Position numbers and translations under genes: made by a program. A stretch of 64,000 bases of DNA from Candidatus Krumholzibacteriia bacterium (lineage in GTDB: Bacteria > Krumholzibacteriota > Krumholzibacteriia > WVZY01), in assembly GCA_046754105.1 (NCBI GenBank), contig JBHHVD010000001.1, positions 42,733 to 106,732 of the forward strand, given 5' to 3'. The stretch's first letter is position 1. Each line of letters opens with the position of its first letter. This document shows positions 13,989 to 63,644 of this stretch, in pieces. The notes beneath the pieces were generated by a model, which was not told the DNA's origin, searched no databases, and saw only the letters and a list, made by a program, of their open reading frames with translations.

Positions 13989-14008
13989 CCACGAGGAGGA
14001 GAAACGCA

Positions 14009-21596: not shown

Positions 21597-21606
21597 ACGT
21601 TGACTT

Positions 21607-23553: not shown

Positions 23554-23570
23554 CGGCGGGAGACCCGACG

Positions 23571-46912: not shown

Positions 46913-47270
46913 CTTCTGACTCCTTTCGATCCCCTAACTAACGTACGGCTCGCCCATCCCCGGGGGGGGCGAACCGCCAACCCCGGCATGGTTCGGGTGC
47001 AATCCATCCACTCCCGCCACGACTGGATTATGGACGATGGGGTGATTCTGCTATCCGAAGTTGAGAACACCTGCGCACGGTTCCCCCGAAAATTAGCACT
47101 TCGACCTGCGCCGGGCAACCTCAAAAAGAGGAGTCCCGGACGACGGGCGTCCCGGCCATCGCCGCTGTCCGGTGCGCGCCCCGGCGCTCGTTGCGAGGCG
47201 GCCGCAATTCGGCAGCGACTCCGTGGTTTAAGGTGTTATTCAGAAGCTTCTTGGGGCATAATGGGGTCGA

Positions 47271-48074
47271 ATGATCTTTCGCAAGACAGATGATGCCCCT
47301 GCTGGCCAGTCCACACCGGAGGTGCCGCCTGCGCCGGGTCGTGCCGGTCGGGCTCGGACCCTCCTGGAGACGAGCGGCAACGCAATGGTGGTGTTGACCA
47401 TTTTGAGCGTAATCGTATCGACGGCCGTCGGGTTTAAATGGCTCTCCCCATTCTTGCACGTGGCCGCCGTGTTTCCCTCGTTCGGCGCAGCGATGAGAGC
47501 CCGCCGACACCGCCTGGCCCTGGCGTTGGCGGTGCGATGGGCGGTCGCTGTGTTCGCCACAACGGTCGTCGTCGGCGTTTTCGTGCCCGACCAGGTGGGC
47601 AGGAGCGTTGTCTTCGCGTACGCGAGCGTTACGGGTATTTCCCAATGGCTCAACACGCCCGGAGCCCCGCCGCCGGCGGACTACGCCTACCTCCTGTGGG
47701 GTATCGCCGTTTTTCTCGCCGGCGCGCTTCTCAGCGGGGGCGCGGTCGCGTTCGTCGTGGCTTCGGTCGCACTGGGAAATGCCGCTTTTGGAGTTCTGTT
47801 TCTTCTCAAGTACGCGTTCAACATCGTTCAAATCGCGCTCGTCGCCATCCCACCCTGGCAGGCGAGCATCCTGGGAGCCGCCCTGCTCATGCTCGTCCCG
47901 GCATCGTTGCCGTTCTACGAGCGGGTCGTACGGACCGGGCCGGAGACCTCGGACCGGAGGGTAGTGCGCGGATTGATGTACGCGGGCGCCGTCCTCGTGG
48001 TGGCCAGCCTGCTGCTGAGGGTCGCAGTGGCAGGTCCCTGGCACACCGTGCTCCGCGAATGGACGCTTTTCTAA
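47271..48074 (+). CDS. Integral membrane protein, function unknown
   Basis: Six or seven clear hydrophobic helices. Preferred over the overlapping minus-strand Arg/Gly-rich ORF 47121-48134. Confidence 0.45.
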   Translation: MIFRKTDDAPAGQSTPEVPPAPGRAGRARTLLETSGNAMVVLTILSVIVSTAVGFKWLSPFLHVAAVFPSFGAAMRARRHRLALALAVRWAVAVFATTVVVGVFVPDQVGRSVVFAYASVTGISQWLNTPGAPPPADYAYLLWGIAVFLAGALLSGGAVAFVVASVALGNAAFGVLFLLKYAFNIVQIALVAIPPWQASILGAALLMLVPASLPFYERVVRTGPETSDRRVVRGLMYAGAVLVVASLLLRVAVAGPWHTVLREWTLF

Positions 48075-48484
48075 TCCGGCCGTCTCCACACGGTGATCGA
48101 TGCGCGACTGTCGTGGTTCGACTGCGCCCGCCACGGCAAGAGCACCTACAACATACCGGCCTCACGACCGCCCCCCTACCATATATGGCGTACCGCGATC
48201 TGCGCCGTCGGATTGCCGGTCTCATAACCTGTTATTAATGAATTTATTGCCGGGGCCGGATTGCCGATGGTGCAATTGTCCTGATTCTTGCTAGTGTGCT
48301 GTCCCGGTGGGGCCGTGCCCCCTTGGCAGGTGGCGCGCCGATCGGCCCCTCCGGCAGGCCAGTTAGGGCTGGGGCGCCCGGAGTCATCGGCGACGGGGGC
48401 TGTACCTGCACAGGTCCGGCAGGGGAACGGCTTCCCGGACCGGACGCCGGGGATTTCCACCCGCCAAGGTGCCAGGAGCGACGT

Positions 48485-50026
48485 ATGCTGTACCTTACAA
48501 TCGTGCGCAGCCCGAGCAAGCAGGAGACCCTGTCGATCCCCGACAAGGAACTGCCCTTTACCATCGGACGCGACAAAGAGAACAAGCTCTTCATCAACAG
48601 TACCGCCGTCTCGCGGTTTCATGCCGTCCTGTTCGCCGAGCATGGGGAATATTTCGTCCAGGACATGGAGAGCACGAACGGCACCTTTCTCAACGGCAAG
48701 AAAGTCAAGAAATCCAGGGTCCACCCCGGCGACCGGGTCACGGTTGCCAACATCGATATCGTCATCGACGCGGCTCCCACGCCCCTGACGGATTTCAAGC
48801 TTCCGCTGGACCTGACCGTGTCCATCGACAATCCGATCGCCAGCGGTGCGACCATCACCATCAAGAATCCGGACCGCGAGCTCCTGCTCGACGACCTGGA
48901 GACCACGGCCGCCCACGACCTGTCGAAGTCGTATTCGGCTCTGCAGGTGCTCTACCGCGCGGACCGCGTGCTGCGGGATATAGAAGATTTCAAACAGCTG
49001 CTGGAGAACTTCATGGACCTCATCGCCGAAGTTATACCCTCGACCCGTGGGTACATATTCCTCCTCAACGCGGAGAACGGGCTGCCGGTACCGTACGTGC
49101 GCCGGGCACCGGGCTCGGCGGGCACCGACACCGAAATCGTTGTCAGCAAGACGATCTTGAAAACGGCAGTTGAGAAAAAAGAATCGTTGATCTCAAAAGA
49201 CGCGCTCGTCGACGAGCGGTTCGCGCATTCGAGGAGCGTGGCCGACTACAAGGTGAGAAGCGCTGTTTGCGCGCCCCTGCTAAACCGGGGAAAGGTCCTC
49301 GGCATTATCTATCTGGACTCGACGGACAAGTCGAATCTGTACTCGAAGGACGACCTTTCGCTGCTCTCAGCCATGGCACTCAAGGCCGGCATCGCTCTGG
49401 ACAACGCGCGGCTCTACGACGACATGCGCAACCTGTTCTTCAACACCGTCGAGACTCTGGTACGCGCCATCCAGGCGCGCGACCCCTACACAAGCGGCCA
49501 CTCCGCACGGGTCACGCGGTACTGCCTGTTGATTGCGGAAAGACTACAGCTGAGCACAAAGGAAAAGCAGCATCTCTATTTGACGTCGATGCTTCACGAC
49601 ATCGGCAAGATCGGCATACCTGACGACCTCCTCAACCGGCCGGGAAAGCTCAGCGAGGAAGAAATCGCGCGGGTACGGGACCACGTCAAGGTCGGTGCGA
49701 GTATGTTGAGAGCGTTGGGTGAGATGCACCCGATCGTTCCGCTCATCCTCCACCACCACGAGGCCTACGACGGATCGGGCTACCCGGACGGGTTAAAGGG
49801 CCAGAAGATACCCCTCATCTCGCGGATCGTCGCCGTCGCGGATACATGGGACGCGATGACGTCGGACCGCCCCTACCGCAAAGCAAGAACCATCGAGGAG
49901 GCGGTCGCGGAACTGAAGCGTTGCTCCGGAACGAACTTCGATCCCAAAGTGGTCAAGGTATTCCTGCAAACCCTCGAGGAACAATCCACCGCGGTGCTGG
50001 ACAAAGTCCCGCAACCGATCACTTGA
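48485..50026 (+). CDS. FHA-GAF-HD-GYP three-domain protein (putative c-di-GMP phosphodiesterase gated by phospho-Thr recognition)
   Basis: Start at internal Met MLYLTIV. FHA: FTIGRDKENKLFINSTAVSRFHAVL...STNGTFLNG. A central GAF domain follows. HD-GYP: LHDIGKIGIP...HHHEAYDGSGYPDGL. Confidence 0.85.
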   Translation: MLYLTIVRSPSKQETLSIPDKELPFTIGRDKENKLFINSTAVSRFHAVLFAEHGEYFVQDMESTNGTFLNGKKVKKSRVHPGDRVTVANIDIVIDAAPTPLTDFKLPLDLTVSIDNPIASGATITIKNPDRELLLDDLETTAAHDLSKSYSALQVLYRADRVLRDIEDFKQLLENFMDLIAEVIPSTRGYIFLLNAENGLPVPYVRRAPGSAGTDTEIVVSKTILKTAVEKKESLISKDALVDERFAHSRSVADYKVRSAVCAPLLNRGKVLGIIYLDSTDKSNLYSKDDLSLLSAMALKAGIALDNARLYDDMRNLFFNTVETLVRAIQARDPYTSGHSARVTRYCLLIAERLQLSTKEKQHLYLTSMLHDIGKIGIPDDLLNRPGKLSEEEIARVRDHVKVGASMLRALGEMHPIVPLILHHHEAYDGSGYPDGLKGQKIPLISRIVAVADTWDAMTSDRPYRKARTIEEAVAELKRCSGTNFDPKVVKVFLQTLEEQSTAVLDKVPQPIT

Positions 50027-50882
50027 GTTCGAGCTCTGCGATTTCCACCGTCGTTGCCCCTCCGTGTGTCGAGGCGAACTCGAGTCGGATTTGCCGGGCG
50101 CCCACCACTCCCCGGTCCAGTTGAATCATTTGCTTGGCGGCTTTGGCCTCCAGCTCGAACTGCTGGATCTCCTTGCCGTCGGCATAGAGCTTGCAGTTTT
50201 TTGGTTGCCCCGCGTCTAGCGTCCGCAGGCTGAGAACGCCTTCTACGACCCCGAAGGGACACGGGATATCCACGTAGGCCTTGCCCTGTGCGGCGACCGG
50301 CGAGCGCCACGCCGTCGTCGTGTCGCCGTCGAACGCCTTCCAAAGCGCGTCGCCTTCGGAAAGGGGCGCGGAGGCGGTTCCGTTCATCGCGATCCAGTCC
50401 GCGCGCTCTCCGGCCATGAGGCTGAACGATTCATCCTGGACGAGGGACACGACCCGGCTTCCCGCAACTACCCGGACGTCCCACAATCCGTCGTCGTTGA
50501 GTTCGACGGGCACCACGCTGTCGGGCACCATGTCCGCGAAATACCAGTGCCACCCGTGGGTCACCTGCGAACCCTTCTTGTTGATGTAGATGATCCCTCC
50601 CGGCGGTTTGCCGCCCTTGCCCCCATAGACGAGAACGCGGCCTTTATCCCCCGTCTCCTGACCCGGGAACGGCTCGTAGATCTTCTTCTCGTATCCGGCC
50701 GCCTCTGCCATTTCCGCGATGGACGCCACTTCTTCCTCCAGCGTCACCGTGCCGCCGGCGCGCCTCGCGATGGCCTGCAGATCCACTGCTCCACCGCTCT
50801 CGTCCTCGGACTTGCCACAAGACCCCAGCAGCAGGGCTGCGAGGACACCCGCGAACAACATTTCCCTGGATCCGAACCTCAT
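50019..50882 (-). CDS. Lipoprotein with a C-terminal beta-sandwich (discoidin/F5-8-type-C-like) domain, function unknown
   Basis: Internal Met gives MRFGSREMLFAGVLAALLLGSCGK, a lipobox. Last gene of the Ser/Thr-kinase operon. Confidence 0.55.
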   Translation of the reverse strand: MRFGSREMLFAGVLAALLLGSCGKSEDESGGAVDLQAIARRAGGTVTLEEEVASIAEMAEAAGYEKKIYEPFPGQETGDKGRVLVYGGKGGKPPGGIIYINKKGSQVTHGWHWYFADMVPDSVVPVELNDDGLWDVRVVAGSRVVSLVQDESFSLMAGERADWIAMNGTASAPLSEGDALWKAFDGDTTTAWRSPVAAQGKAYVDIPCPFGVVEGVLSLRTLDAGQPKNCKLYADGKEIQQFELEAKAAKQMIQLDRGVVGARQIRLEFASTHGGATTVEIAELELK

Positions 50883-51040
50883 ATGTACCTTCCTTTTCGC
50901 AGAAAAAATGAACCGGAGCATTATGCGGGACTCCGCGTCGAATGTCAAGACGCAACTCATTATACCGCTGGTGATTGTGGAAGTTGCAGAGGACGTGGAA
51001 AAAACCCGTGGGTACCGAGTACCCACGGGGAAGCCGGTGA

Positions 51041-52684
51041 CTAACGGTGCGCGGCTGGGACGACGACGCCCCCCGCAGTCTTGCCCAGCAAGTAGACGAC
51101 CACGTTTTCCAACAGCCAGGCGCCGTCTTGCGTCAGGTTGTCGGGGCTGACCTCCACGCCGTTGAAACCCCATAAAAGGTTGGTCGCCGTTCCCAGGACG
51201 ACGGTGGTGGTTTCCTCGACCAGGGGATGCAGGAGCATCAGCGGTGCCCGGGCGGCGAAAGGGGTCACGTTGTTGTTGCCGGAAAACGGGACGGAAAGCA
51301 TCTCGAGGTTGCGCGTGTAGACGCCCAGAAGCGACCCCGCGGTGGCGTTCAGCGGGTTCGGCAGATTATAAACGTCGTCGGCCGGGTCGACCACGTAGAG
51401 CCCCGACTGAAAGCTGGTCTGGGCACCACCGAAGCCAAGTGTCAGACCGATATTCTCGAAATAGGACGCCCCGCCGGCGCCTATACCGAGCACCATCGTG
51501 CCACTCTGCGCGATGGCATCGGTCTGGGGCTGGTATGCCCCCTGCCAGCCGGTGACGTCCTGGGCCGCGTCCCAGCCGATAACGACCACGTCGAACAACA
51601 CCGGGCTCACGGCGAAATCCTTTGGCAGCACGCGTACGGCCGCCTGTCCGGTGGTTTCCCAGTACGACTCGATCTCCTGTTCGAAGAGCGCCGCCGCTGC
51701 CGTATCTCCCTGACCCTGGACGTCGGTGATGTAGGCGATGTTCTGCACGCGCACGTAATCGGCCGACCAGGCGGTGCCCAGAGCGTTGTCCACCATAACC
51801 ACGTCAGAGGTGCCTTTCAGCGGCACCTGCACCTGGACGAGCAACTGGTCGGTCGCCGCGGTGACGATGCTGGCCGCGCGGCCGAAGATCCAGACCTGGG
51901 TGCCGGGGTAATCGAGATGCTCACCGAATACCGTCAGCTGAACCACCTGGCTCCTCATGGCCTCCGGTGCCGAGATTCCCGAGATCGCGGGAGCGGCATA
52001 GATGTGAACGTATTGCTCCGCGAACTCACTCTGCGTGTAGATGTTCTCGGCGGCCACCCGAAAATAGTAGTCGCCGCCCGGCAGGTCCCCTCCGTTTACC
52101 TGGGTAAACGTGTCCGTCAGGCCCGCTTCAAAACTGATAACGGAGAAATCGGGTACCGGACTTTCCTGAAACCGGTAGAAACCCGCGCCGGGCGTACGGT
52201 TCCACATCAAATTGAACGTGGTCCCTTCATCCACGACGGAGATATCCCGCCAGAACGCCGGTAACACGAACGATCTGGCCACGATCGAAACGCTGGTGTT
52301 CTGGTCTCTCAGCACGTCCACCGCCTCGTCGACGCCGAAAAAGGTCATGAGCCCGGCTTGAAACAACTCTACCGCCACACGCTTGCCGGCCTCCGCGATG
52401 ACGGTCAGCTGGACCTGGGCCGTGCCGGCGGGCGGGTTCAGCGCTACGCCCTTGGTCGCTTCCGGCTGGCTGCCCGTACCCGGGCGGTAGACCTTTACCA
52501 CGACGGAATCCGCCGTGGGCAGCGCACGTGCGAGGGCATCGTCCATAGGGGCCGCTGCGCTCCCACCGCCGGAGAGCCGCAGGACGATCACGCCGTGCTC
52601 CTCCACGTCGGGGCTTTCCAAGAGCGAACATCCCACCGCGGCGAGGCTGATTGCGACCGCTAGTACAAGAATCTTTTTGGACAT
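51041..52684 (-). CDS. Large surface lipoprotein with Fn3/IPT-like repeats, function unknown
   Basis: Lipobox MSKKILVLAVAISLAAVGCS. Ig-like segments (…YYFRVAAENIYTQSEF…). Confidence 0.6.
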   Translation of the reverse strand: MSKKILVLAVAISLAAVGCSLLESPDVEEHGVIVLRLSGGGSAAAPMDDALARALPTADSVVVKVYRPGTGSQPEATKGVALNPPAGTAQVQLTVIAEAGKRVAVELFQAGLMTFFGVDEAVDVLRDQNTSVSIVARSFVLPAFWRDISVVDEGTTFNLMWNRTPGAGFYRFQESPVPDFSVISFEAGLTDTFTQVNGGDLPGGDYYFRVAAENIYTQSEFAEQYVHIYAAPAISGISAPEAMRSQVVQLTVFGEHLDYPGTQVWIFGRAASIVTAATDQLLVQVQVPLKGTSDVVMVDNALGTAWSADYVRVQNIAYITDVQGQGDTAAAALFEQEIESYWETTGQAAVRVLPKDFAVSPVLFDVVVIGWDAAQDVTGWQGAYQPQTDAIAQSGTMVLGIGAGGASYFENIGLTLGFGGAQTSFQSGLYVVDPADDVYNLPNPLNATAGSLLGVYTRNLEMLSVPFSGNNNVTPFAARAPLMLLHPLVEETTTVVLGTATNLLWGFNGVEVSPDNLTQDGAWLLENVVVYLLGKTAGGVVVPAAHR

Positions 52685-52705
52685 GTCTTTGACCTCCGTC
52701 GCGAT

Positions 52706-53323
52706 TTACTGGACTTGTATGCCAACGGTCACGCGGCCGGTATCGGCGGGGGGCGCATTGTCGCCCCCACCAGAGGCCGCTCCCGCGATGGCGAGGAGTA
52801 CGACACCCATGGTCGCGTAGAACCACCATTTCTTGTAGACCGGTTTGCCCGCCGGCGCGGCGGCCTCGGTACTGGAATCGGCCGCACTGGTGATGCCGGT
52901 GTCCGGCGCGGTGCGGATTACCGCCGAGGCGTATTCCGATTTGGCCTGGTCGAACGTCGAGACGACGATCGATTTGAAAACACCCGGATCCGGGCCCTTG
53001 TAGGCACCGTCTTTTTTCAGGAGTTTCAGGAACTGAGCTTTTCCCTCGTCGCTCGCGCCCGTCATGATCAGCGACGCGGCCAGATACTCCCGCGCCTCCC
53101 GGACCTGTTCGTCTGCAACGTCCTCGCGCTCGAGGAACTGACGCAGCTCTGAGATGGCCTTTGTGTAGTCGCCGCGAAAATAGTACTTGTATTCAATTCG
53201 TTTCAGATCGGTGTCCGCCCCGGCGAGCGCTTCGCGCGGGAAAAGGCACGTCGCCTGGAAACCGAAGAAGCAGATCATGACGACCGTCGATACGACCTTG
53301 AGACCCCTGCTTTGCCTCAACAT
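52706..53323 (-). CDS. Bitopic membrane protein with a TPR-like helical region, function unknown
   Basis: N-terminal signal or anchor, and a C-terminal TM WWFYATMGVVLLAIAGAA. Lies 37 nt downstream of the kinase gene. Confidence 0.45.
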   Translation of the reverse strand: MLRQSRGLKVVSTVVMICFFGFQATCLFPREALAGADTDLKRIEYKYYFRGDYTKAISELRQFLEREDVADEQVREAREYLAASLIMTGASDEGKAQFLKLLKKDGAYKGPDPGVFKSIVVSTFDQAKSEYASAVIRTAPDTGITSAADSSTEAAAPAGKPVYKKWWFYATMGVVLLAIAGAASGGGDNAPPADTGRVTVGIQVQ

Positions 53324-53360
53324 GGTAAACCTCCGTCAGCAAGGAACCGCGGGAATGTTT

Positions 53361-55676
53361 TCATCCATCCAGCTCTTCATATGTCACCGTGGGTTCGCTT
53401 CCCACTTCGTACTCGATAACGGTATCCACGCCCTCTTTCACCGTGACGCCCACCTCGCGTGAGTCCTGTTCCCGAAACATGTTGCAGAGAATCGTATGGC
53501 GCCCCGCGGGTACGACGGCGCCGGTAAAGGGCGGTTGCTGCTTGAACTTGCGACCGTCGAACCACAACTCGCCGACACCGCCGAGGAAGTACACGGATAG
53601 CCTCCCGTAGGCGAGCTTCGGTGGCTCGAGCGTGGTCCTGGAACCCTTTCTCACCGTCACCACTTCTTCGAACGCCGTCACACCGTCGAGCAGTTCCGCA
53701 CGCACTTTGTGTTTCCCCGCGGGCAGCTGGATCGACAGGTACGTATCTTCACGGACCTTTAGGTCTCCATCGACGTAGATGTTGGCCAGTTTCGGCAGCA
53801 CCCAATCCAGCCGGCCCGAACCCGTGCCCGTCTTCCTCCGGGCCCGCTGCCCGGGTTTGACCTGGACGACCAGCGTCTGCTCGGAGCTGGCGATTCCATC
53901 GCTGCCGTGGACGGGAACGCGATGGGTTCCCGCCTGGTTCTTACGGGGAGTCCAGACGATACGATCGCCGTTCAACGCCATTCCGGCGGGCGCGTCTTCG
54001 AGCGAGAACTGCACCGGCCGGCCGGACGCGCTCGCCGCTTGCAGTTTTACGTTCAGTTTCTTGCCGACCTGCGCGGTTGCGCCGCCGATCGCCTTGAAGT
54101 CCAGGGAAACGGGTTCGTCCACCACCTCGACCAGCGTTTGCGCCTGTGCCACGTCGTTTCCGTCGTCGGCAAAGAACCTGAGCTCGTGTGTGCCGGCCTG
54201 CGAATAGTCGACCTTCCACGTAAATTCCCCCTCCGCGGACAGGTCTGCACCGTCGGGCAGGTTGTCGCTGTAGAGACGTACCTTATCGCCGTCCGCGTCG
54301 ACGACCTCGATCCGGAATTTGACGTGTTGCCCTTCGCTGACCGTCATGCGGGGGGGCGGGGACAGGACCGGTGCGGCGTTCGCGCTGCCGCTCGATCGAA
54401 TCGCCGTCCATCCCCACCAGCCGCCGAAAGCGGCGCTGGCCGCAACAAGGACGATGAGCGGGGCCGCCAACCGGCCGCGGCGCGAGCCGGCAGCGCGGCG
54501 GGGCGGTCGTCCCCGGGTTGGTTTCGCCTTCGCCCGGCCGCGTATCCGGGATTTCGAGTCCTCCCCGTCTGCCTTTTTGGATAGCCCGGCTTTGTCGAGG
54601 GCGACGGTCGAATTCTCGTCGGGATACTCTGCCATGAGCCTGGCGAGATGTTTCCGTGCGCGGTCGTTGGTCGGATCGAGGTAGAGGATCCGCTTGAACT
54701 CCTGTACCGCATCGGTGATGTGGGTCTTGCCCTTCTGCATGAAGTAGGTTCCCTGTGACAAACACCGGGCGACCATCTTGTCTTTGTAGGCCTTCTCGTA
54801 CGCCTCGGGGTCCTTCATGTACCGCTGCAGGCGACGGCGATCCCGTTTGATCTCGAACTTCTCCATCGCCTTTTCAACGTCGGTAATGATATCGACGATG
54901 CTCTCGTAACGCCGGGAGACGTCCTTCTCCAGCATCCTGGCGACGATGTTTTCGAAATCGGGCTGGATGAGAGGGTTCTTGTGGGTGAGTGATGGAACAT
55001 CGTGGGTCTGGATCTTCTCGAGCACTTCCGAATAGGATTTTCCCTCGAACGGGCGTTTCTGACAGAACAACTCGTATGCCACGACGCCCAGCGAAAAGAT
55101 GTCGCTCTGCGGCCCAACGTTGTCACCCGCCGCCTGTTCCGGTGACATGTAGGCGGGTGTTCCGAGCACTTTTCCGGGCTGGGTGACGACGGTCATCGCG
55201 TCGGATTTCTTGGCCAGCCCGAAGTCGGCAATCTTGATTCCGCCCTGCCGCGTGTAGATGATATTCGCGGGCTTGATGTCCCGGTGAACGATTTCCTTGT
55301 TGTGCGCAGCCTCCAGCCCGAGGCAAACATCCAGCAGGATCGAGACCGCGATGTCGAGGGGGATTCTCTCGTAGTCCTTGATGAGGTCGGCGATCGTCAT
55401 GCCCTCGTAGTACTCCATGACGATGTAGTAGCAGCCGCCCGACTCGCCGAAATCGACGACGTTGACGATGTTCTCGTGCTGGACCTTGGCGGCCGATCGG
55501 GCCTCGCGTTCGAAGCGGCTGATGAAGCTCTCGTCGCTCGCCAGGTAGGGAAACAGCACCTTGATGGCGACGGTTTTGCCGATGGACACCTTGCGGGCCT
55601 TGTAAACGGCCGCCATGCCGCCCACGGCGACCTGCTCCATCGAATCGTAACCGTCTATGCGGACTTCTATTGCCAT
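53361..55676 (-). CDS. Transmembrane eukaryotic-like Ser/Thr protein kinase with extracellular Ig-like and PEGA domains
   Basis: Start at internal Met MAIEVRIDGYD. Kinase motifs VAIKVL, HRDIKPANII, DFGLAK, GTPAYMSPE. One TM segment. Two Ig-like repeats, then two PEGA-like repeats (…YVDGDLKVREDTYLSIQLPAGKHKVRAEL…). Confidence 0.9.
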   Translation of the reverse strand: MAIEVRIDGYDSMEQVAVGGMAAVYKARKVSIGKTVAIKVLFPYLASDESFISRFEREARSAAKVQHENIVNVVDFGESGGCYYIVMEYYEGMTIADLIKDYERIPLDIAVSILLDVCLGLEAAHNKEIVHRDIKPANIIYTRQGGIKIADFGLAKKSDAMTVVTQPGKVLGTPAYMSPEQAAGDNVGPQSDIFSLGVVAYELFCQKRPFEGKSYSEVLEKIQTHDVPSLTHKNPLIQPDFENIVARMLEKDVSRRYESIVDIITDVEKAMEKFEIKRDRRRLQRYMKDPEAYEKAYKDKMVARCLSQGTYFMQKGKTHITDAVQEFKRILYLDPTNDRARKHLARLMAEYPDENSTVALDKAGLSKKADGEDSKSRIRGRAKAKPTRGRPPRRAAGSRRGRLAAPLIVLVAASAAFGGWWGWTAIRSSGSANAAPVLSPPPRMTVSEGQHVKFRIEVVDADGDKVRLYSDNLPDGADLSAEGEFTWKVDYSQAGTHELRFFADDGNDVAQAQTLVEVVDEPVSLDFKAIGGATAQVGKKLNVKLQAASASGRPVQFSLEDAPAGMALNGDRIVWTPRKNQAGTHRVPVHGSDGIASSEQTLVVQVKPGQRARRKTGTGSGRLDWVLPKLANIYVDGDLKVREDTYLSIQLPAGKHKVRAELLDGVTAFEEVVTVRKGSRTTLEPPKLAYGRLSVYFLGGVGELWFDGRKFKQQPPFTGAVVPAGRHTILCNMFREQDSREVGVTVKEGVDTVIEYEVGSEPTVTYEELDG

Positions 55677-55985
55677 TTGCAAGATTCTCCGGCCGCCGTA
55701 TCCCGCCCATCGACGGAACGCAGCGTAACGCACTATTACGCAACAGGTTAAAAACCTGCATCCCATGTCCCGCGGGGCTAGTTGCAATAATTACGCCACC
55801 GGCGCCGAGGGGCCACCCCCCCCCAATCACGGCCACCGCGCTCGTCCGCGGCACACGCGGGACGGGGGAGCGCGCCGGCGGCGGCGGGGTACGGAGTTTT
55901 TGCTTGAGCGGCCGGAACGGGGGTTGTATAACTTGCCGAGCCCGAAGCCCGGCAAGAAACCACTCGGGGGGAAAAGGAGTCATCC

Positions 55986-56615
55986 TTGAGACGGATCGTC
56001 GTGATCGTAGTCGTCGTGCTGTCCGTGTGCTGCCACGCACCCGCATTCTCGCAGGTTTTTTACACGTTTGCGAACGCCCCCGTCGTTGCACCGGACAACG
56101 TGGTCACCGGCGCGTACGCGGCGGTCGGTGAGAACGACCTCTTCCGGCTCGGTGGTTTCGGGCGCCTGGGGCTTGTGAAATACTTCGACGTCGGCGTGGA
56201 GGTCCAGCTGGACCTTGTCGACGGAGACGCGCGTGGAGGCGCCGGGGTGGACGTCAAGCTGGCCGCCTTTCCAGAGACGGCCGCGATACCGTTCGACTTG
56301 TCGCTCAACGCCGGCGTGGGGTTTGTCGGTGACGGCGACTTTACACTGATCCGTGTGCCCATTGGCGGTATCATCAGCAGCCCGTTCAAACTGGATTCCG
56401 GAAAAGTGCTCGTCCCCTACGTTGGCGCGTATCTGCTCGTCGACAATATCGATGTCGAAGGCGGCCCGCTCCAACCGGACATCTCGGATACCGACGTGGA
56501 TGCCGAGCTCAGGGGAGGCGTGCGCTACGAGCTGGAGGGTCGATTGGACCTCTTCGGCACGCTGCACATAGGCCGCGGCGCGCTCTTTGCCGTGGGTGTA
56601 ACCCTCAAACTCTAG
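55986..56615 (+). CDS. Small outer-membrane beta-barrel-like protein, function unknown
   Basis: Signal peptide MRRIVVIVVVVLSVCCHAPAFSQ. Eight to ten amphipathic beta-strand segments (…VGVEVQLDLVDG…, …LSLNAGVGFVG…). Confidence 0.5.
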   Translation: MRRIVVIVVVVLSVCCHAPAFSQVFYTFANAPVVAPDNVVTGAYAAVGENDLFRLGGFGRLGLVKYFDVGVEVQLDLVDGDARGGAGVDVKLAAFPETAAIPFDLSLNAGVGFVGDGDFTLIRVPIGGIISSPFKLDSGKVLVPYVGAYLLVDNIDVEGGPLQPDISDTDVDAELRGGVRYELEGRLDLFGTLHIGRGALFAVGVTLKL

Positions 56616-56655
56616 GGGGGATGTGGCGCCCGGTGCGGCGGTGGCCACGCGCGGG

Positions 56656-57411
56656 TCAGCGGGCGCTGTCGATCTTCACGATCTGGACGGTGACGTTGTC
56701 CTTGCCGCCCTTCTTGTTCGCCAGTTCTACCAGTTCCTTGCACGCTTTCCGGGGGGAATTCGCCTTGAGGATCGCCTCAACTTCGTCGTCGGTTACCATC
56801 GTAGTCAGGCCATCGGAGCACAGAAGAAAAACGTCACCGTCGGCGGTCTTGTAAGGAGACGACGGAAAATCCGTCGCGAGTTCCTCTTGCGTCCCCAGTG
56901 AGCGCGTGATGACGTTGCGCTTGGGATGATTTTGCGCGTCTTCGTCGGACAGAATGCCGGACCGGACCATTTCGCCGACCAGCGAGTGATCTTCCGTCAC
57001 CTGCTTCAGCTTGCCGCCCCTGAGCACGTACGCTCTCGAATCACCGACATGCGCGAAGAAAGCGTCGCCCTGCTTGAGCACCATCGTCGTACATGTCGTA
57101 CCCATTCCGAATAGCTCGACGTCGGCGATGGATTTCCGATGGATTACGTCGTTTGCCTTGATGAACGACTGGCGCAACGCCTCGATGGCGTCGTCCGATT
57201 CGCTTGCGTAGTACCAGGAGATAATCGTATCGACCGCCAATTTGCTGGCGATCTCGCCGCCGCGGTGGCCTCCCATACCGTCCGCCACCACGTAGAGGGA
57301 ACCTTTTTCCGCCTGCGCCGTCTCGCCGTTGGGCTCACATTTCCCCACGGCGTCTTCGTTGTTTTGCCGAACCTTGCCGTCATCCGTAAGTTCAAAAGAA
57401 TCGAGCTTCAT
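56656..57411 (-). CDS. PP2C-family Ser/Thr protein phosphatase
   Basis: Start at internal Met MKLDSFELTDDGKVRQNNEDA. LYVVADGMGGHRGGEIAS and the downstream Asp motifs are present. Confidence 0.9.
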   Translation of the reverse strand: MKLDSFELTDDGKVRQNNEDAVGKCEPNGETAQAEKGSLYVVADGMGGHRGGEIASKLAVDTIISWYYASESDDAIEALRQSFIKANDVIHRKSIADVELFGMGTTCTTMVLKQGDAFFAHVGDSRAYVLRGGKLKQVTEDHSLVGEMVRSGILSDEDAQNHPKRNVITRSLGTQEELATDFPSSPYKTADGDVFLLCSDGLTTMVTDDEVEAILKANSPRKACKELVELANKKGGKDNVTVQIVKIDSAR

Positions 57412-57698
57412 TCGTCCCTTCCTGGACCCGCAACGTGTCTTGACCTTATCTTCGACTCGAAACCGAGTCAAGGGCAATGATTCGCGCCGTCCCGCAGCGC
57501 GCTGCCGCTTAAAAAATGCCAAAAACTTCTTCCTGGTGGAACAATCTGGCATATTTTACGCAGAAGATCCACGGAGTTGGGGTCCTGACAACGGCGTCCG
57601 GCCGGTCGTACTGTCAACCCTGTCGATGGGAAAATTCGACCCGTTTTCGCGTAAGCCCAGAGAATGTCTTCAATTGGAGACTCCACCGGAGGATATTG

Positions 57699-59009
57699 AT
57701 GGACAAGAAGAACTCTCAGAGCACGGAAAAGCATCTTGCAAAATATCAGGAGCTTGTAGGAAAGCGCAAGACATTGCAAGCGCGCCTGGAGAGAATCAAT
57801 GCGGAAAAGGGATCGGTCAAGGAAGCGATCTACGAAAAGGTCCGGGGCGAGTACGAGAAGCAGTTGGGCGAACTCGAGAACGAGATCCAACCCGTGAAAG
57901 ATGAGGTAGACAAGACCCGCCGTATGATCAAGGACCAGCTGGCCAGGATCGACGAGGAAGTCGCCGCACTCGAAGATCAGCTGCAGGAATTCGATCTTCG
58001 CCACCGCGTGGGCGAGTTTGACGAGAATGAACTATCGAAGCTGCGGGATCCGGTCCACCGGCAATCGGACGAGCTATCCGAGAGAAGAAAGCACCTGGCG
58101 CAGACTCACCAGCAGTTGGACGACCCGGACGCGGCCCCGCCGGCCGAAACGACGCGGACGGCCGCCGGCGAGGCACCCACTCCCGACGCCGCGGAACCGG
58201 TTTCGAAAGTGCCGCCCCCAGGTCCCGTCACCAGGCCGAGGCCACCGGCCCCGGTCACAGCGAAGGGTAAGCCACCGGCACCGGATACCGGCGAGCCGGC
58301 AGCCCCCACCGTTCCCCGGAAAGCACCGGCCCCATCGCCACAGCCCACGGCCGCGGCCGCTCCGCCACAACCGCCGGAAGCACCCGAAGCACCCACCGTT
58401 GACGCGCCCGAGATACCCGCTGCCTCACCACCACCCGCCGAGCCGGACGACGGGCTCGTACTGTCCGGAGCCAAGCCCAGCAAGCGCGTGAACAAGATGC
58501 AGGGGCTCGTGGACACGAGCGAGTGGTCGAAGGAGTTTCAGGAAGAGACCCACAAAGGCGGCAAGGGCAGGCGCCACACCGATACGCCGGACGCGCCCAC
58601 GGCCGCCACGGACGACGATCCGCTCGCGGCCCTCTCCGATTCGTCGGCCCCGGCCGGTCCCGCGGCGACCACCCGGGGAAAGAAGCGGGGGGGCGTCGGT
58701 ACGCGGGAGAAGCCCAGGGGCTTTCCCGTCCTCATTATCACCAAGGGTCCCGGTGCGGGCAAGAAGCTGCCGCTAGTGCCGATGACAATGACCATCGGCC
58801 GCGAGCACGACAACAACATCGAGCTGAAAGACGAGGAAGTTTCCCGGTACCACGCGAGAATCTCATACGAAAGCGGCGAATACGTAATAAAGGACCTCGA
58901 CAGTTCCTCGGGGACTTGGGTCAATGAGGAGAGGATCGCGGAGGCAGCACTCAACCAGGGAGACAGAATCCAGGTCGGCGCCACCGAACTGGTCATTGAC
59001 TTTGAGTAG
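57699..59009 (+). CDS. FHA-domain protein: N-terminal coiled coil, Pro/Ala-rich linker, C-terminal FHA
   Basis: Start at internal Met MDKKNSQ. FHA: MTIGREHDNNIELKDEEVSRYHARISYESGEYVIKDLDSSSGTWVNEERI. About 170 residues of PAPxP low complexity. Confidence 0.85.
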   Translation: MDKKNSQSTEKHLAKYQELVGKRKTLQARLERINAEKGSVKEAIYEKVRGEYEKQLGELENEIQPVKDEVDKTRRMIKDQLARIDEEVAALEDQLQEFDLRHRVGEFDENELSKLRDPVHRQSDELSERRKHLAQTHQQLDDPDAAPPAETTRTAAGEAPTPDAAEPVSKVPPPGPVTRPRPPAPVTAKGKPPAPDTGEPAAPTVPRKAPAPSPQPTAAAAPPQPPEAPEAPTVDAPEIPAASPPPAEPDDGLVLSGAKPSKRVNKMQGLVDTSEWSKEFQEETHKGGKGRRHTDTPDAPTAATDDDPLAALSDSSAPAGPAATTRGKKRGGVGTREKPRGFPVLIITKGPGAGKKLPLVPMTMTIGREHDNNIELKDEEVSRYHARISYESGEYVIKDLDSSSGTWVNEERIAEAALNQGDRIQVGATELVIDFE

Positions 59010-59026
59010 CCGGCGCCGCTGGAGCG

Positions 59027-59890
59027 CTAGACCCGCTCGACGGAATTGGCGGATACCCACCCCGAGAGCCCTCCCGGCAGCTGAATCCTCACCCAACCAC
59101 GACGCGCCTCTCCCACCGTTACCATTGTTCCTTCGTGAATCTTGAACCGCAGGGTCGCGTCCTCCGTCGGGCTGCCGAATACAGGTATCTCGCGGGCCAA
59201 CACTACTGCGTCAGGGCGGCGCATTTCCTCCTGCAGCTTGAGATACGAAGAAAAGCCCGTCGTCGCCACCAGGATCACCAGTAACGCGATGGCCGCGAGC
59301 AGTTCCTGGGTTAGTGTCAGACCGAACAATCTTCCCGGCGAAATGACGGACAGCCTGTGATGTACGATCGTGACAAACCGCGTCTCGCGAAAAATGAAAA
59401 CCACGGCCAGAGTGCACAACAGCAGGTAGGCCAGCGATGCAAAAGACAACATCTCGGCGGTTCGCAGGTTGTCGTGAAACCAGATCATTCGCTGCGCCAG
59501 GCGACTCTTGTTCTCGACGAACTGCTTGTCTTTGAGTTGGGTCCTGACCAGAGTCAGGTTTTCTCTCACGTCCGGATCGCGCGGCGACAGCCGCGCCGAC
59601 CTCTCGTAGAACAGCACGGCCCTGCCCAGATCGTTGGTCTTGTAATAAGCGTTACCCAGGTTGTAATAGAGCGTTTCATCCACGACGCCGCCGTCCATTA
59701 CTCCGGTGTACGCTTCTATCGCGCCGGCATAGTCCCCCGACTCGTACAGCGCGTTCGCCCTCGCGAAGAGCGCCCGCGCCGATTCCGCCGCCACCGGCTC
59801 CTCGGCGCGCGCACGCCGTGGTCCCCCTCCTGCCGCATACGCGATCAAGAGTAGCGCGGTGACAAGCCCGAAGCGGCGCATGATCCTCAC
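59027..59890 (-). CDS. batE: BatE-like protein (TPR + TM + C-terminal SH3-like domain)
   Basis: Signal peptide, TPR motifs (YYNLGNAYYKTNDLGRAVLFYERSARLSP), one TM segment, and the C-terminal ...GTMVTVGEARRGWVRIQLPGGLSGWV. Last gene of the bat cluster. Confidence 0.6.
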   Translation of the reverse strand: MRIMRRFGLVTALLLIAYAAGGGPRRARAEEPVAAESARALFARANALYESGDYAGAIEAYTGVMDGGVVDETLYYNLGNAYYKTNDLGRAVLFYERSARLSPRDPDVRENLTLVRTQLKDKQFVENKSRLAQRMIWFHDNLRTAEMLSFASLAYLLLCTLAVVFIFRETRFVTIVHHRLSVISPGRLFGLTLTQELLAAIALLVILVATTGFSSYLKLQEEMRRPDAVVLAREIPVFGSPTEDATLRFKIHEGTMVTVGEARRGWVRIQLPGGLSGWVSANSVERV

Positions 59891-61710
59891 GAAAGGTACC
59901 TCTTCTCTAGGTGTTTCATTATGGCCGCCGCTTCGCGAACCATCTCCGCAACTCCGGCGGCTCCGTCCGACGGCGAGTACTGGACGCTATCACATGCTCT
60001 GAGTACCGCACCGAACCGCTCCCGCTCCTTCGCGTCCGTTCCACACTCCAGGAGAAAGCGGTCGAGGTCCGGGAAAGTGAGTCCCGATGCCGCCAGATTC
60101 ATTTTGTCGGCAACGTATTCGCGGAGCGCACCCGAGATCATGCCGCACGCTTCTTCCGTGCGGCCTTTGCCGTCCAATTCGGCTGCCTTCTTGAGTTTTC
60201 TGGAGGCTTCCCGTGCCGCGCGGCTGGACCGGGCCAGCGAGACGTCGTCCCGCCATCGCCTGCGCCTCCGTTCGAAGGCGAGAGAAACGAGAACGGCCAG
60301 CAGCGGGAAGACATGAAGAGCCGCAAAGAGGCCACTGCGGTAGAAACCCCTGGCCGCTGACGACAACGTCGCGGGAACCGGGTGAATAAAGTTGATGTCC
60401 TTGCCGAGTACCTCGATGTCCTCGCCAGAGCCGGCAAAAATAACCTGCCGCCCCCCTTCCTGCTGCTCGGCCGGTTTAATCTCCATCGATATCGACGCTG
60501 ACCGGATACTCTTGTACTCCTTTGCGATGGGGTCGAAGTAGGACAATCTCACGGGCGGAATGACGGCCTGCCCCTCGTTCCGGGGAACGAGAACGAAGTT
60601 CGACTGTTTTCTCCCTGCGACGACGTAGTCTCGTTTGAAAAGGTCGGCGCTGGAACCGGACTCGTAGATCTTGAACCCGTCGATCTGCGGGAGAACGGGA
60701 GCCGCCATGGTCTTGAAATTTCCCTCGCCGCTGACCTCGAGTGTCACGTTGACCGGCTCGCCGGCCCGAATCACCTGTTTGTCGGCACGGAGCGATATCT
60801 CGAGGTTGCGCCCCACCAGACCCGAGAAGTCGGCCGGCTTGCCCTCGACGGGCAACGGCAGCACGACGATCGGTATTTCGTCCGTCGAAAGCCGCCTGGC
60901 GTCGCCGAAACCGAAGGACGAGAACGGTCTCCGGAAGAAATCGTCGAAGGAACGCGCCGCAAAATCGTCGACCACGACGTCCACCCGCGCCGGTCCTATC
61001 GTGTACGTGCCCGGCACGGTTGGAAAGAACCCGCGCTTGATTTCGTTGATCAGATACTTCCGGCCGCCGATCATCTTGTAGTAGTTTTTCTGCGGGGGCA
61101 AGTCTTCCGCCCAGAAACCTTCGGCCGACGGTGCCGAGTAATAGGGACTCTTCGACAAATCGAGGCGGCCATCGGTGTAAAACCCCAGCGTCCAGGTGAC
61201 CTGCTGGCTTACGTAGACGGTGTCCCGGTCCACCCGTGCTCTGATGAAAATATGTGCGTCATCGCTGACCTGCTCCGGTTGTCCACCCGGCGTATCGGGC
61301 GGTGGCAGTTGGCTCGAAGATGCCACGACTTCGATGCTTACCGGATCGGCGGTATAGACCTTACTACCGACCTTGAAGCGAATGGGGGCGATCGTGTAAT
61401 GACCTTCCTTACGGGGCACAACCACGTACGTAAACTTGAGCGAAGAGCTTCTCTGGCCGTTGGAAATGCTGAAGCTCTGCGACGTGCCTGCCTGGTAGAC
61501 CGAGAACTCGTCGAGCACGGGAAGCTCCGGCTGGGACGAGCGGCGAAACTTGCCCTGAACCGCGACGACCAGCGTGGCCTCGCTGCCAACGGGAACGACG
61601 GAAGGTTCGAGCACCGCGGTGATAGTCACGTCTTCGGCCACCGCCGGACCGGCCCCCAGCACCGCGGCCATGATGAAAACCACCACCAGCCATCTTGTCA
61701 AAGGTCTCAC
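59887..61710 (-). CDS. batD: BatD-like oxygen-tolerance protein
   Basis: ~600-aa protein with a signal peptide and a C-proximal TM segment. Positioned between batB/C and batE with 4-nt overlaps. Confidence 0.65.
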   Translation of the reverse strand: MRPLTRWLVVVFIMAAVLGAGPAVAEDVTITAVLEPSVVPVGSEATLVVAVQGKFRRSSQPELPVLDEFSVYQAGTSQSFSISNGQRSSSLKFTYVVVPRKEGHYTIAPIRFKVGSKVYTADPVSIEVVASSSQLPPPDTPGGQPEQVSDDAHIFIRARVDRDTVYVSQQVTWTLGFYTDGRLDLSKSPYYSAPSAEGFWAEDLPPQKNYYKMIGGRKYLINEIKRGFFPTVPGTYTIGPARVDVVVDDFAARSFDDFFRRPFSSFGFGDARRLSTDEIPIVVLPLPVEGKPADFSGLVGRNLEISLRADKQVIRAGEPVNVTLEVSGEGNFKTMAAPVLPQIDGFKIYESGSSADLFKRDYVVAGRKQSNFVLVPRNEGQAVIPPVRLSYFDPIAKEYKSIRSASISMEIKPAEQQEGGRQVIFAGSGEDIEVLGKDINFIHPVPATLSSAARGFYRSGLFAALHVFPLLAVLVSLAFERRRRRWRDDVSLARSSRAAREASRKLKKAAELDGKGRTEEACGMISGALREYVADKMNLAASGLTFPDLDRFLLECGTDAKERERFGAVLRACDSVQYSPSDGAAGVAEMVREAAAIMKHLEKRYLS

Positions 61711-63542
61711 CAGTCCTTTCCTGAACGGCTGACGCGCTTGAACGCAGCCTTGCGTTTTGCCTTCTGCAGTTCCTTCTCCTGCTCTTCGAGCAGCTTCAGG
61801 ATCCGAAGCGCGTCTTCCCGGGTGAGCTTGATGCTCCGGGCTTGTTGTTGCTGCGGGTCGGTCTGGGCTGAATCGGATTCAGACGGGGACGGCGCTTGCG
61901 ACGAGTCAGGCTGTTCTTCATTCGCGTCCGGTTGCTGCTGTTGGTCCTGGTCGGAACCCTGTTGCCCCTCCTGCGACTCCCGGTCCTTGTCGCGGTCGCC
62001 AGGCTTCTGGTCGCTCTGGTCCTGGTTCTGGTCCTGCGATTTGTTCTGTTGATCCTGTTTGTTTTGCTGCTGCTGTTGCTGGTTCTGTTGCTGCTGCTTC
62101 AGGGCCAGCTCGAGATTGTGTCGTGCGTCCCGGTCGTCCGGCAGGTACTGCAGCGTCCGGAGGTAGGATTCAATCGCCTCGCCGAGCTTGCCCATGCGCG
62201 CGAGCGTATTGCCGCGGTTGTAGAATACGCGCCCGGCGCTGAGGCTATCCTCCGTAAAACTTCTGTTGTATCGATTCAAGGCGTCTTCGTACTTGCCCAT
62301 CATGTGCAGCGCGTTGCCCTGGTTATAGAGCACACCCTCCGCTCTCTTTGGCAGTGTCGTCGTATCGCCCATAGCCTCTCGATACAGAAGCAGCGCTTTC
62401 TGGTACTCACCGGCATCGTAGTATTCGTTCCCCGCCTTGACCCGGCCACGGTCGATGCTTCCCGCACACGCCGCGCCGGGAAGGAACGCCACGAGCACAA
62501 TGGCACCCATGATCCCCGTGTGCAGGGGTCTGCGGCGGTTCCTCATCGATCCGCGCCGGGAGACGACCGTCTCCAACCCCAGCAACAGGAACGCCGCGGC
62601 AAGAAACCAGGTAAAGCGATCACTTTTGCGCTCCACGAATTCGCCCTCTATCGTTGTCTTCTGCATACCCGAAATCTCGCGATAAAGAACCTTCAGTTCG
62701 AGTCCCTGCCGGGTGGCCGGCAGGAATTTTCCACCGCTGGCGTCGGATACGAGGCGGAGCGTCTTTTCATCGAGCCTCGTGAGTACCGTTTCTCCCGTCT
62801 TGTCCTTCTTGTACCCCGCGACGGATCCGTCCGTTCCCCTCAGGGGTATCAACTCGCCAGCCGGATTGCCGATGCCAATCGTGTATATACGAATACTTTT
62901 GTCGTTCGCGCGGCGGGCGGATGCGACCGGGTCGCCGGCATGGCCCTCTCCATCCGTTACGAGGATGACCACCCGATCGCTCTTCGCCTTCTCCGCAAAC
63001 AGCGCTATGCTCGTATCGATCGCCTTGTCCAGAGCCGTGCCCGGTTGCGAGATAATATCGACGTCCGCCGTCTGCACAAACATTAGCGCGGCGTCGTAGT
63101 CGACGGTAAGCGGGCAAAGGACGAAGGCCTCTCCCGCGAACGCGACCAGGCCTACACGATCGCCTTTGAGTCCCCGGATCAGATCCACGATTTCCTGCTT
63201 GGCGCGCTCCAGGCGGTTGGGTTTCATGTCCTCCGCCATCATGCTGAGCGAAGTATCGAGCGCGATAACGAGGTCGATTCCTTCTCGCTCCAGCTTGACC
63301 AACTGCTTGCCAAACTGCGGGCGAGCCAGCGCGAGCACCAGCAGTGCAAAGCCCGTGATCTTCAGGATGCTCTTGAGGAGTGTTTTTCGCCAGCTCGCCC
63401 CCGGGGCCAGCGAATCCCTCAGATGCGGACCGGCAAAACGCAGGAGTTCCTTGCGCCGCCGCCGCGCCCCATAGATAAGAAGCCACGCGAGAAATGGCAC
63501 CGCGTACAAGGCACTCAACCATTCTGGATCTGCAAATTCCAT
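61707..63542 (-). CDS. batB: BatB-BatC fusion: membrane-anchored vWA-domain protein with TPR repeats and a Gln/Asp/Ser-rich low-complexity tail
   Basis: Two N-terminal TM segments. vWA with the MIDAS motif DLVIALDTSLSM...TDG. TPR repeats follow. The C-terminus is QQQQNQQQQQQNKQDQQNKSQDQNQDQSDQ.... Confidence 0.75.
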   Translation of the reverse strand: MEFADPEWLSALYAVPFLAWLLIYGARRRRKELLRFAGPHLRDSLAPGASWRKTLLKSILKITGFALLVLALARPQFGKQLVKLEREGIDLVIALDTSLSMMAEDMKPNRLERAKQEIVDLIRGLKGDRVGLVAFAGEAFVLCPLTVDYDAALMFVQTADVDIISQPGTALDKAIDTSIALFAEKAKSDRVVILVTDGEGHAGDPVASARRANDKSIRIYTIGIGNPAGELIPLRGTDGSVAGYKKDKTGETVLTRLDEKTLRLVSDASGGKFLPATRQGLELKVLYREISGMQKTTIEGEFVERKSDRFTWFLAAAFLLLGLETVVSRRGSMRNRRRPLHTGIMGAIVLVAFLPGAACAGSIDRGRVKAGNEYYDAGEYQKALLLYREAMGDTTTLPKRAEGVLYNQGNALHMMGKYEDALNRYNRSFTEDSLSAGRVFYNRGNTLARMGKLGEAIESYLRTLQYLPDDRDARHNLELALKQQQQNQQQQQQNKQDQQNKSQDQNQDQSDQKPGDRDKDRESQEGQQGSDQDQQQQPDANEEQPDSSQAPSPSESDSAQTDPQQQQARSIKLTREDALRILKLLEEQEKELQKAKRKAAFKRVSRSGKDW

Positions 63543-63644
63543 CGTCGTTCCTCGATGCCTTCTTCCAGGTCACCCCGGCGCCCGGTTGCGGTTTCCGGAT
63601 TCCCGCCGCGGGCGTGCGGGTCGCCGGCAAGCCCGCCGGCCGTG

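Follow-up and report, generated by a model that had tools for sequence, protein, structure and literature searches.

A conserved kinase, phosphatase and FHA gene cluster of Candidatus Krumholzibacteriia as a candidate envelope-sensing phospho-threonine module

Circuits in which a Hanks-type Ser/Thr kinase (STK) is countered by a PP2C phosphatase and read by FHA domains are well known in Actinobacteria, Firmicutes and Myxococcus and in the control of the type VI secretion system (T6SS); the activators of their ectodomains and their links to second messengers are largely open. The locus considered here lies in a stretch of 64,000 nucleotides (nt) from Candidatus Krumholzibacteriia bacterium (contig JBHHVD010000001.1; hereafter the window), in which genes for such a kinase, phosphatase and FHA proteins stand among genes for envelope proteins. 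It was compared with about 45 related loci from genomes and metagenomes (0.5 Mb of sequence in total), onto each of which every protein of the window was mapped, and family membership was judged by Pfam gathering scores and NCBI curated family cut-offs. The locus is a lineage-specific version of a known scheme and not a new kind of system. We read it tentatively, with a confidence that falls a little short of even, as an envelope-sensing phospho-threonine module whose signal would be read by FHA domains, with turnover of cyclic di-GMP (c-di-GMP) as a possible output.

The PpkA/PppA/Fha1 pathway of Pseudomonas aeruginosa, together with TagQRST, resembles this locus in that it joins a Hanks kinase of the membrane, equipped with an extracytoplasmic domain, to a PP2C antagonist, an FHA reader and accessory proteins of the envelope (lipoprotein or periplasmic), whose genes accompany that of the kinase and which plausibly function upstream of it. 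However, the present locus stands without a T6SS, the ectodomain of its kinase is PEGA-like/Ig rather than VWA, its FHA protein is of a coiled-coil type and not of the TagH type, its accessory proteins are unrelated save for a weak TPR/TssQ likeness, and a second FHA domain is fused to GAF-HD-GYP. The PknB/PstP/FhaA-FhaB system of Mycobacterium and the Stk1/Stp1 system of Firmicutes contain the closest families for the kinase domain, the PP2C phosphatase and the FHA domains (FhaB/FipA), and in the PknB system a juxtamembrane phospho-threonine is a known principle of FHA docking. In contrast, the locus described here lacks PASTA repeats as well as genes for the cell wall or division, it carries a sigma-54-type element, and the host is a diderm with an outer-membrane barrel and lipoproteins. 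In DgcB of Bdellovibrio bacteriovorus, an FHA-GGDEF protein, binding of a phosphopeptide to the FHA domain activates the enzyme (PMC6733907). By analogy, this fusion of FHA to a c-di-GMP-metabolising domain may serve as a precedent for an FHA-gated output, although the protein in our locus has an HD-GYP domain (predicted degradation) and an intervening GAF domain, and has a kinase encoded next door. The Bat (Bacteroides aerotolerance) operon is represented by BatD, VWA/TPR and TPR/SH3 genes which flank the block, the relation being one of adjacency only. To our knowledge, Bat operons have not been described with STK/PP2C/FHA genes. What appears to be new, judging from the sequence, is the sigma-54-type element, a PEGA-like ectodomain which is minimal and has two obligate partners in the envelope, and a putatively FHA-gated HD-GYP neighbour.

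In every long locus the gene order is the same, running from BatB, BatD and BatE through the genes for the coiled-coil FHA protein, PP2C, the outer-membrane barrel, the kinase, a 205-amino-acid (aa) anchor protein, a 547-aa lipoprotein and a 287-aa discoidin-like lipoprotein to an FHA-GAF-HD-GYP gene, with the FHA, barrel and HD-GYP genes on the opposite strand to the others (Table 1). This order holds where identity falls to approximately 38% for the anchor and approximately 26% for the 547-aa lipoprotein. Kinase and anchor genes were adjacent in all 33 testable loci, anchor and 547-aa lipoprotein genes in 27/27, and the lipoprotein and discoidin genes in 18 of 19; the FHA-GAF-HD-GYP gene, which was absent from the preliminary description of this DNA, travels with the block and was adjacent to it in 15 loci. 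The cluster is chromosomal and is conserved across the clade formed by Candidatus Krumholzibacteriia and relatives. The gene positions and lengths first reported, and the gaps of 37, 21 and 158 nt that separate the kinase, 205-aa, 547-aa and 287-aa genes, agree with the open reading frames (ORFs) and with independent gene calls, whose boundaries are identical on two assemblies of the same organism. The divergent outer-membrane barrel, the neighbouring bat genes and the clustering of an STK/PP2C/FHA set with envelope proteins also held up, the last of these being kept in every relative which could be examined.

Two natural variants mark the joints of the block. Locus L061 (CP070631.1 scaffold piece, 7977-15347) carries the HD-GYP, discoidin, barrel, PP2C, FHA, BatE and BatD genes in the usual order and lacks exactly the kinase, the anchor and the 547-aa lipoprotein, the discoidin promoter there abutting the barrel upstream region. 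In locus L027 (1-7704) the three genes missing from L061 are present, but those which come after them are unrelated, and both the discoidin and the HD-GYP gene are lacking. As the breakpoints of both coincide with the predicted end of the operon, these variants agree with a kinase operon of three genes. As to whether the lipoproteins always travel with the kinase, the gene for the 547-aa protein was never found apart from the operon, and that for the discoidin-like one occurs without it.

Directly 3' of the 547-aa lipoprotein stop there is a hairpin with an 11-bp stem, eight GC pairs and a T6 tail, and GC-rich hairpins with differing stems occupy the same position in L003, L005, L007, L010 and L041. 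A TTGACA-N17-CATAAT element follows 80 nt past the hairpin and precedes the 287-aa gene; CTTGACA was found before this gene in 17/17 related loci, with N17-NAYAAT readable in most. Across the loci the intergenic gaps measure 8-98 and 21-32 nt inside the operon and 43-237 nt before the discoidin gene. Because the hairpin and its own promoter set the 287-aa gene apart, the kinase operon most likely consists of three genes, those for the kinase, the TPR anchor and the 547-aa lipoprotein, and the discoidin-like lipoprotein gene is, as judged by these elements, a separate transcription unit. Of the operon of kinase and three surface proteins proposed earlier, the anchor and the 547-aa lipoprotein are therefore retained, whereas the terminator-like hairpin and the promoter before the fourth gene speak against a four-gene unit.

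Upstream of the kinase, TGGCGTAATTATTGCA is the sole match to TGGC-N7-TTGCW in the 64-kb window. A sigma-54-type element was found before the kinase in 16/16 loci, 118-133 nt from the ATG, with an invariant GG-N10-GC, flanks of (T/A)GGC and TTGC and a variable spacer. GG and GC placed 10 nt apart, within TGGCAC-N5-TTGCW, characterise sigma-54 -24/-12 promoters. Between the -12 element and the kinase ATG there are 100-104 nt in 13 of 14 loci, and a GCAA before the ATG is invariant; RNAalifold predicted no pairs in this leader of approximately 100 nt (55677-55782, minus strand) over 13 loci. A separate sigma-70-like element, likewise conserved, serves the barrel gene on the strand opposite to the kinase element. 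The spacer between the PP2C and FHA genes holds a related pair, TGGCAYNNTTTAAGC toward the PP2C gene and TGGCAYNNTTTACGC toward the FHA gene, the elements being TGGCATTTTTTAAGC at 57521-57507 (minus strand) and TGGCATATTTTACGC at 57547-57561 (plus strand). Within the 0.5 Mb of related loci the paired pattern is restricted to this spacer, with both copies in ten distinct loci and a single copy in one, and the FHA-proximal version in distant loci, TGGCACGGTTTACGCT, is one which we take to resemble glnAp2 of Escherichia coli. The two may be divergent sigma-54-type promoters.

The kinase scores 172 bits against Pkinase (PF00069; cut-off 31.7) and is of the Hanks type. Its kinase domain (residues 11-257) is followed by a helical TPR-like region, the juxtamembrane Thr357 and one transmembrane helix, beyond which lie two Ig-like domains (He_PIG, Big_9 and PKD by Pfam) and then two PEGA-like modules. 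As K39, HRD131-133, DFG151-153 and the activation-loop T165 are, along with T357, invariant among 15 orthologs, the protein is active-looking as a catalyst. In the same orthologs the helical region after the kinase domain is kept and the context of Thr357 reads T-[VL]-x-[ILM]-[DE]; a preference for a hydrophobic residue at pT+3 is common among FHA domains, and the motif fits it, Thr357 being a putative FHA docking site. The original naming of the protein as a PEGA/Ig Ser/Thr kinase stands for the kinase and Ig domains, which Pfam recovers, whereas PEGA (PF08308) stayed sub-threshold at 16.2 bits (E 0.01; cut-off 20.8) for a copy at about residues 631-683. Weak PEGA matches occur in 3 of 17 orthologs, the related family DUF2846 reaches 1e-4 in relatives, and for the module at residues 691-762 the PEGA-like label is taken from its sequence pattern. 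In the alignments this terminal module is the only part of the ectodomain which is universal among orthologs, and for this reason it is likely to be the partner- or ligand-binding part. Both Ig domains and the second PEGA-like copy (53607-54400, residues ~430-690) are restricted to a subclade with kinases of 761-771 aa, and in the shorter orthologs (575-653 aa) a low-complexity linker rich in S/T/P/A/K replaces them.

The 205-aa anchor comprises a signal peptide or anchor, a TPR-like domain of approximately 100 aa, a conserved GKPxYKKWWFY motif, a C-terminal transmembrane helix and a short tail, and its homologs (62 clusters) are all about 200-215 aa long. The protein is bitopic, as first described; the TPR assignment is weak (E 0.03), as are its similarities to TssQ (E 0.0017) and to YbgF (E 0.076), the name by which NCBI labels it ('YbgF family'). 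The idea that the C-terminal TGTVTV tail is a phospho-site was dropped because the Thr positions vary, the protein of the window having R, and the pattern looks like a beta-strand. Anchor matches confined to the C-terminus in gut and other metagenomes (L043-L060) were rejected as homologs, since they share only the short juxtamembrane KPIYKKWWFY motif. This motif also occurs in unrelated membrane proteins, many of which begin with a zinc ribbon (for example L044:10001-10084 and L055:10001-10117), and appears to be a convergent membrane-interface motif.

The 547-aa protein is, as first described, an Fn3/IPT lipoprotein, with an AVGC lipobox, an Fn3 domain by PDB profile (E 7e-7) and a TIG domain detected in 4 of 18 homologs (E 9e-8); an N-terminal beta domain precedes these and a C-terminal alpha/beta domain follows. 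Its sequence is 100% identical to that of a protein from a MAG of 'Candidatus Krumholzibacteriia bacterium', and the family as a whole numbers six clusters in a database of 5.8 billion proteins. A profile of the C-terminal domain, residues 312-547, collected 750 representative clusters at E<=1e-3, of which 472 reach <=1e-10; the proteins concerned are 140-2258 aa long, and the partners of the domain in them include Por_Secre_tail (T9SS sorting), Laminin_G_3, S8/M10 peptidases, CARDB, PKD and VWA. It has a beta-alpha-beta pattern with conserved DTG, GxGxGG and LWGF motifs, no Pfam match and no solved PDB structure detectable by sequence, and we regard it from its profile as a common surface-protein module, a family as yet without a Pfam name. 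The slot of the lipoprotein gene varies in size: in L011 (9030-9755) it holds a protein of 241 aa corresponding to the N-terminal part only, and in L038 and L039 a protein of 757 aa (L038:3976-6246), the flanking genes being the same in each case.

The PP2C phosphatase belongs to the Stp1/IreP family (NF033484; 268.2 bits, cut-off 230), residues 9-245 of 251 being covered. It is cytoplasmic and monocistronic, and its gene, previously called divergent, lies on the strand of the kinase and converges on the barrel gene; the identification as PP2C was correct, unlike the orientation. The 209-aa product of the barrel gene, with a signal peptide and a closed antiparallel transmembrane beta-barrel, is a 10-stranded outer-membrane beta-barrel. 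FHA (PF00498) was matched in two proteins at 72.8 and 63.1 bits (cut-off 20.7), with GRE and RYHARI invariant. The first, of 436 aa, is the cytoplasmic coiled-coil/FHA protein recognised from the outset, in which a conserved N-terminal coiled coil (CdvA-like at 8e-6, sub-threshold) is joined by a Pro/Ala-rich linker to the C-terminal FHA domain. The second is the 513-aa FHA-GAF-HD-GYP protein, so that the locus encodes one kinase, one phosphatase and two phospho-threonine readers. Its HD-GYP domain matches HD_5 (PF13487) at 147.9 bits (cut-off 27.2) and the translation holds an intact LHDIGK and HHHEAYDGSGYP (the HHExxDGxGYP motif), which makes the protein a candidate phospho-threonine-gated cyclic-dinucleotide phosphodiesterase. 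Upstream of this gene a conserved element, TTGTCCTGATTCTTGCTA, which matches neither the sigma-70 nor the sigma-54 consensus, was found ~200 nt from the ATG in the window (48273-48295, plus strand) and 30-110 nt upstream of the gene in the eight related loci having it. The HD-GYP gene converges on the 287-aa lipoprotein gene with a tail-to-tail overlap of 8 nt. This lipoprotein combines a conserved WHWYF...ELNxDGLWD domain with a galactose-binding-like (discoidin/CBM32-like) domain at the C-terminus, in which the alignment shows a conserved FDGDxxTxW motif. Its description as discoidin-like draws on this motif and on several concordant matches, all of which are sub-threshold: F5/8C at E 0.004-0.007 (16.9 bits against 28.2), NADase_discoid at 2e-4 (21 bits against 38), a weak NPCBM match and CBM32 of PDB at E 0.078.

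We propose that the anchor and the 547-aa lipoprotein would act as co-sensors of a cue from the envelope or the surface by binding to the ectodomain of the kinase, in the manner of TagQ/TagR with PpkA. The earlier view of these co-transcribed envelope proteins as the 'cargo' of the operon is probably wrong, co-sensors being more likely by this analogy. The kinase would then autophosphorylate at T165 and at the juxtamembrane Thr357, and the two FHA proteins would dock on phospho-threonine, the coiled-coil protein perhaps as a scaffold and the FHA-GAF-HD-GYP enzyme turning the signal into a changed hydrolysis of c-di-GMP or a related dinucleotide; PP2C would reset the system by reversing the phosphorylation. 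Sigma-54 and an enhancer-binding protein would be needed to transcribe the kinase operon and perhaps the PP2C and FHA genes too. A more specific version, in which a sigma-54-controlled trans-envelope sensor of kinase, TPR anchor and lipoprotein is read directly by the FHA-GAF-HD-GYP protein, giving the first STK to FHA to HD-GYP route from surface to c-di-GMP turnover, fixed beside the Bat genes across Krumholzibacteriia, is unlikely. A search of the literature on FHA with HD-GYP and a kinase, on PEGA kinases and on signalling in Krumholzibacteriota returned nothing specific.

This model should be considered with caution, as a number of points weigh against it. What is observed here are the identities of the domains, the order of the genes, the elements of promoter and terminator type and the invariant residues; the interactions, the phosphorylation, the need for sigma-54 and the enzymatic output are inferred. 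None of the PEGA, TPR and discoidin assignments reaches its threshold, and an AlphaFold2 model of the 547-aa lipoprotein built with its six database homologs reached a pLDDT of 42, with the TIG domain alone usable. The window and the 0.5 Mb of related loci yielded neither an RpoN box nor GAFTGA/ESELFGH signatures, and there was no enhancer-binding protein among the window ORFs scanned against Pfam, so that the dependence on sigma-54 is drawn from the motif alone. In the PP2C/FHA elements AAGC/ACGC replaces TTGC at -12, and the pair, an imperfect inverted repeat of elements ~25 nt apart, could equally be a palindromic operator. The substrate of the HD-GYP domain is possibly c-di-GMP or a related dinucleotide, each being a candidate only. 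Since L061 retains PP2C, both FHA proteins and the HD-GYP protein, these four need not depend on the kinase, and collinearity alone is weak proof of function because all loci come from one lineage.

This last point leads to another explanation, that the order was kept mainly by descent, the STK/PP2C/FHA genes being an ordinary global set and the envelope genes their unrelated neighbours. In its favour, all loci are restricted to one clade, the housekeeping flanks (DUF1579, radical-SAM genes) are often collinear too, and L061 and L027 show independent loss of parts. Moreover, sequence change has been much faster in the envelope proteins than in those of signalling (about 26-48% against 55-73% identity), identity being lowest in the barrel (28-49%; 26 clusters in the same 5.8-billion-protein database) and the 547-aa lipoprotein (26-40%) and highest in the kinase domain (~60-65%), PP2C (55-67%) and HD-GYP (51-73%) proteins. 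However, the kinase, anchor and lipoprotein genes were never found apart and were lost jointly in L061, they are spaced as in an operon and share one conserved promoter element, and the block was retained while the flank past HD-GYP was rearranged in distant loci, for example by a ribonucleotide reductase insertion. We therefore consider conservation mainly by descent to be an unlikely account of the arrangement.

It is less probable again that the locus is a cell-wall or division module like PknB/PstP/FhaA, in which the TPR anchor would play the part of YbgF/CpoB in Tol-Pal. In its favour, PknB/Stk1 is the closest family for the kinase domain and FhaB/FipA for the FHA domains (E 1.5e-21), PP2C falls in the Stp1/IreP family and the anchor bears the NCBI name already mentioned; yet the kinase reaches only 327 bits against a cut-off of 450 for the PASTA kinase model (NF033483), with the kinase domain alone aligned, the FHA match of 77 bits lies below the FhaB cut-off of 125, and the YbgF similarity is weak. 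Pfam found no PASTA repeats in the kinase and no DUF3662 at the N-terminus of the 436-aa protein, which is therefore not of the FhaA (Rv0020c) type, and the ORFs and gene calls that were examined, those of the window and of the related loci alike, included no rodA, pbpA, ftsW or tol-pal genes. The analogy to PknB and cell-wall synthesis drawn in the preliminary description is thus not upheld.

Nor does the neighbourhood of the Bat genes, identified by Pfam on the gene calls of L002 as BatA/VWA/TPR, BatD and TPR/SH3, make it at all probable that the block serves the Bat (MoxR-DUF58-BatA-E) system as a regulatory appendage, in a unit spanning Bat to HD-GYP. The BatE and FHA genes meet across a gap of 17 nt, a junction found in 9/9 loci reaching it and also in the kinase-less L061. 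However, the genes converge and hence belong to separate transcripts, and the adjacency can be examined only inside one clade; moreover, we know of no STK/FHA genes in the Bat operons of Bacteroides, Leptospira or Francisella.

A threonine phosphorylation pathway of the T6SS type (PpkA/PppA/Fha1), the other analogy drawn at first, is very improbable. STK, PP2C and FHA are present and the anchor is weakly TssQ-like, but the ORFs and gene calls that were examined for the window and ~40 related loci include no T6SS core gene, Pfam found no VWA domain in the kinase such as forms the ectodomain of PpkA, and the FHA domain lies at the C-terminus and reaches 44 bits with the TagH model (TIGR03354), whose cut-off is 120. 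An anti-phage defence kinase of the PD-T4-6 or Stk2 type is scarcely credible, since the PADLOC match to PD-T4-6 models (E 4e-86) covers the generic kinase domain alone, the other proteins give no PADLOC match save a weak one of PP2C to the candidate model PDC-M21C (E 2.6e-14), and the locus shows stable chromosomal synteny over a deep clade, a uniform composition across the region (window ~61% G+C) and no mobile-element genes.

Under the envelope-sensing reading, the locus represents a compact candidate circuit that evolution has kept fixed. Its parts are an ectodomain reduced to a minimal conserved module, two obligate co-encoded partners in the envelope, an invariant Thr as a putative FHA docking site and a candidate FHA-gated HD-GYP protein. 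The host phylum is uncultured, and these parts are amenable to in vitro study without culture. The locus also draws attention to a surface-protein domain family of at least 750 sequence clusters without a Pfam or PDB match.

Table 1. Features of the locus, with positions in the window
Feature	Position	Strand	Remarks
FHA-GAF-HD-GYP protein, 513 aa	48485-50026	+	FHA 3e-17, GAF 1e-14, HD_5 3e-43
287-aa lipoprotein, discoidin-like	50019-50882	-	weak concordant matches
Sigma-70-type promoter, 287-aa gene	50920-50948	-	11/12 consensus
Terminator-like hairpin	51005-51029	-	11-bp stem, T6 tail
547-aa lipoprotein	51041-52684	-	lipobox, Fn3, TIG/IPT
C-terminal ~235-aa alpha/beta domain of 547-aa lipoprotein	51044-51751	-	residues 312-547
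205-aa anchor protein	52706-53323	-	62 homologs
Hanks-type Ser/Thr kinase, 771 aa	53361-55676	-	Pkinase 2e-50
C-terminal ~75-aa PEGA-like module of kinase	53391-53606	-	residues 691-762
Sigma-54-type -24/-12 element TGGCGTAATTATTGCA	55783-55798	-	122 nt upstream of kinase ATG
Outer-membrane beta-barrel, 209 aa	55986-56615	+	divergent from kinase operon
PP2C phosphatase, 251 aa	56656-57411	-	NF033484, PP2C, PP2C_2
Back-to-back GG-N10-GC pair	57507-57561		between PP2C and FHA genes
Coiled-coil FHA protein, 436 aa	57699-59009	+	FHA 3e-20
Bat genes (TPR/SH3 BatE-like, BatD, VWA-TPR BatA/B-like)	59027-63542	-	Pfam

An Rfam search of positions 47000-64000 returned nothing but SorX, sub-threshold. 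Elsewhere in the window, a neighbourhood at 19682-25514 comprises a GAF-PAS-HisKA-HATPase histidine kinase gene (19682-21445, minus strand) beside two paralogous PMT_2 glycosyltransferase/TPR genes (21607-23553 and 23571-25514, both on the plus strand).

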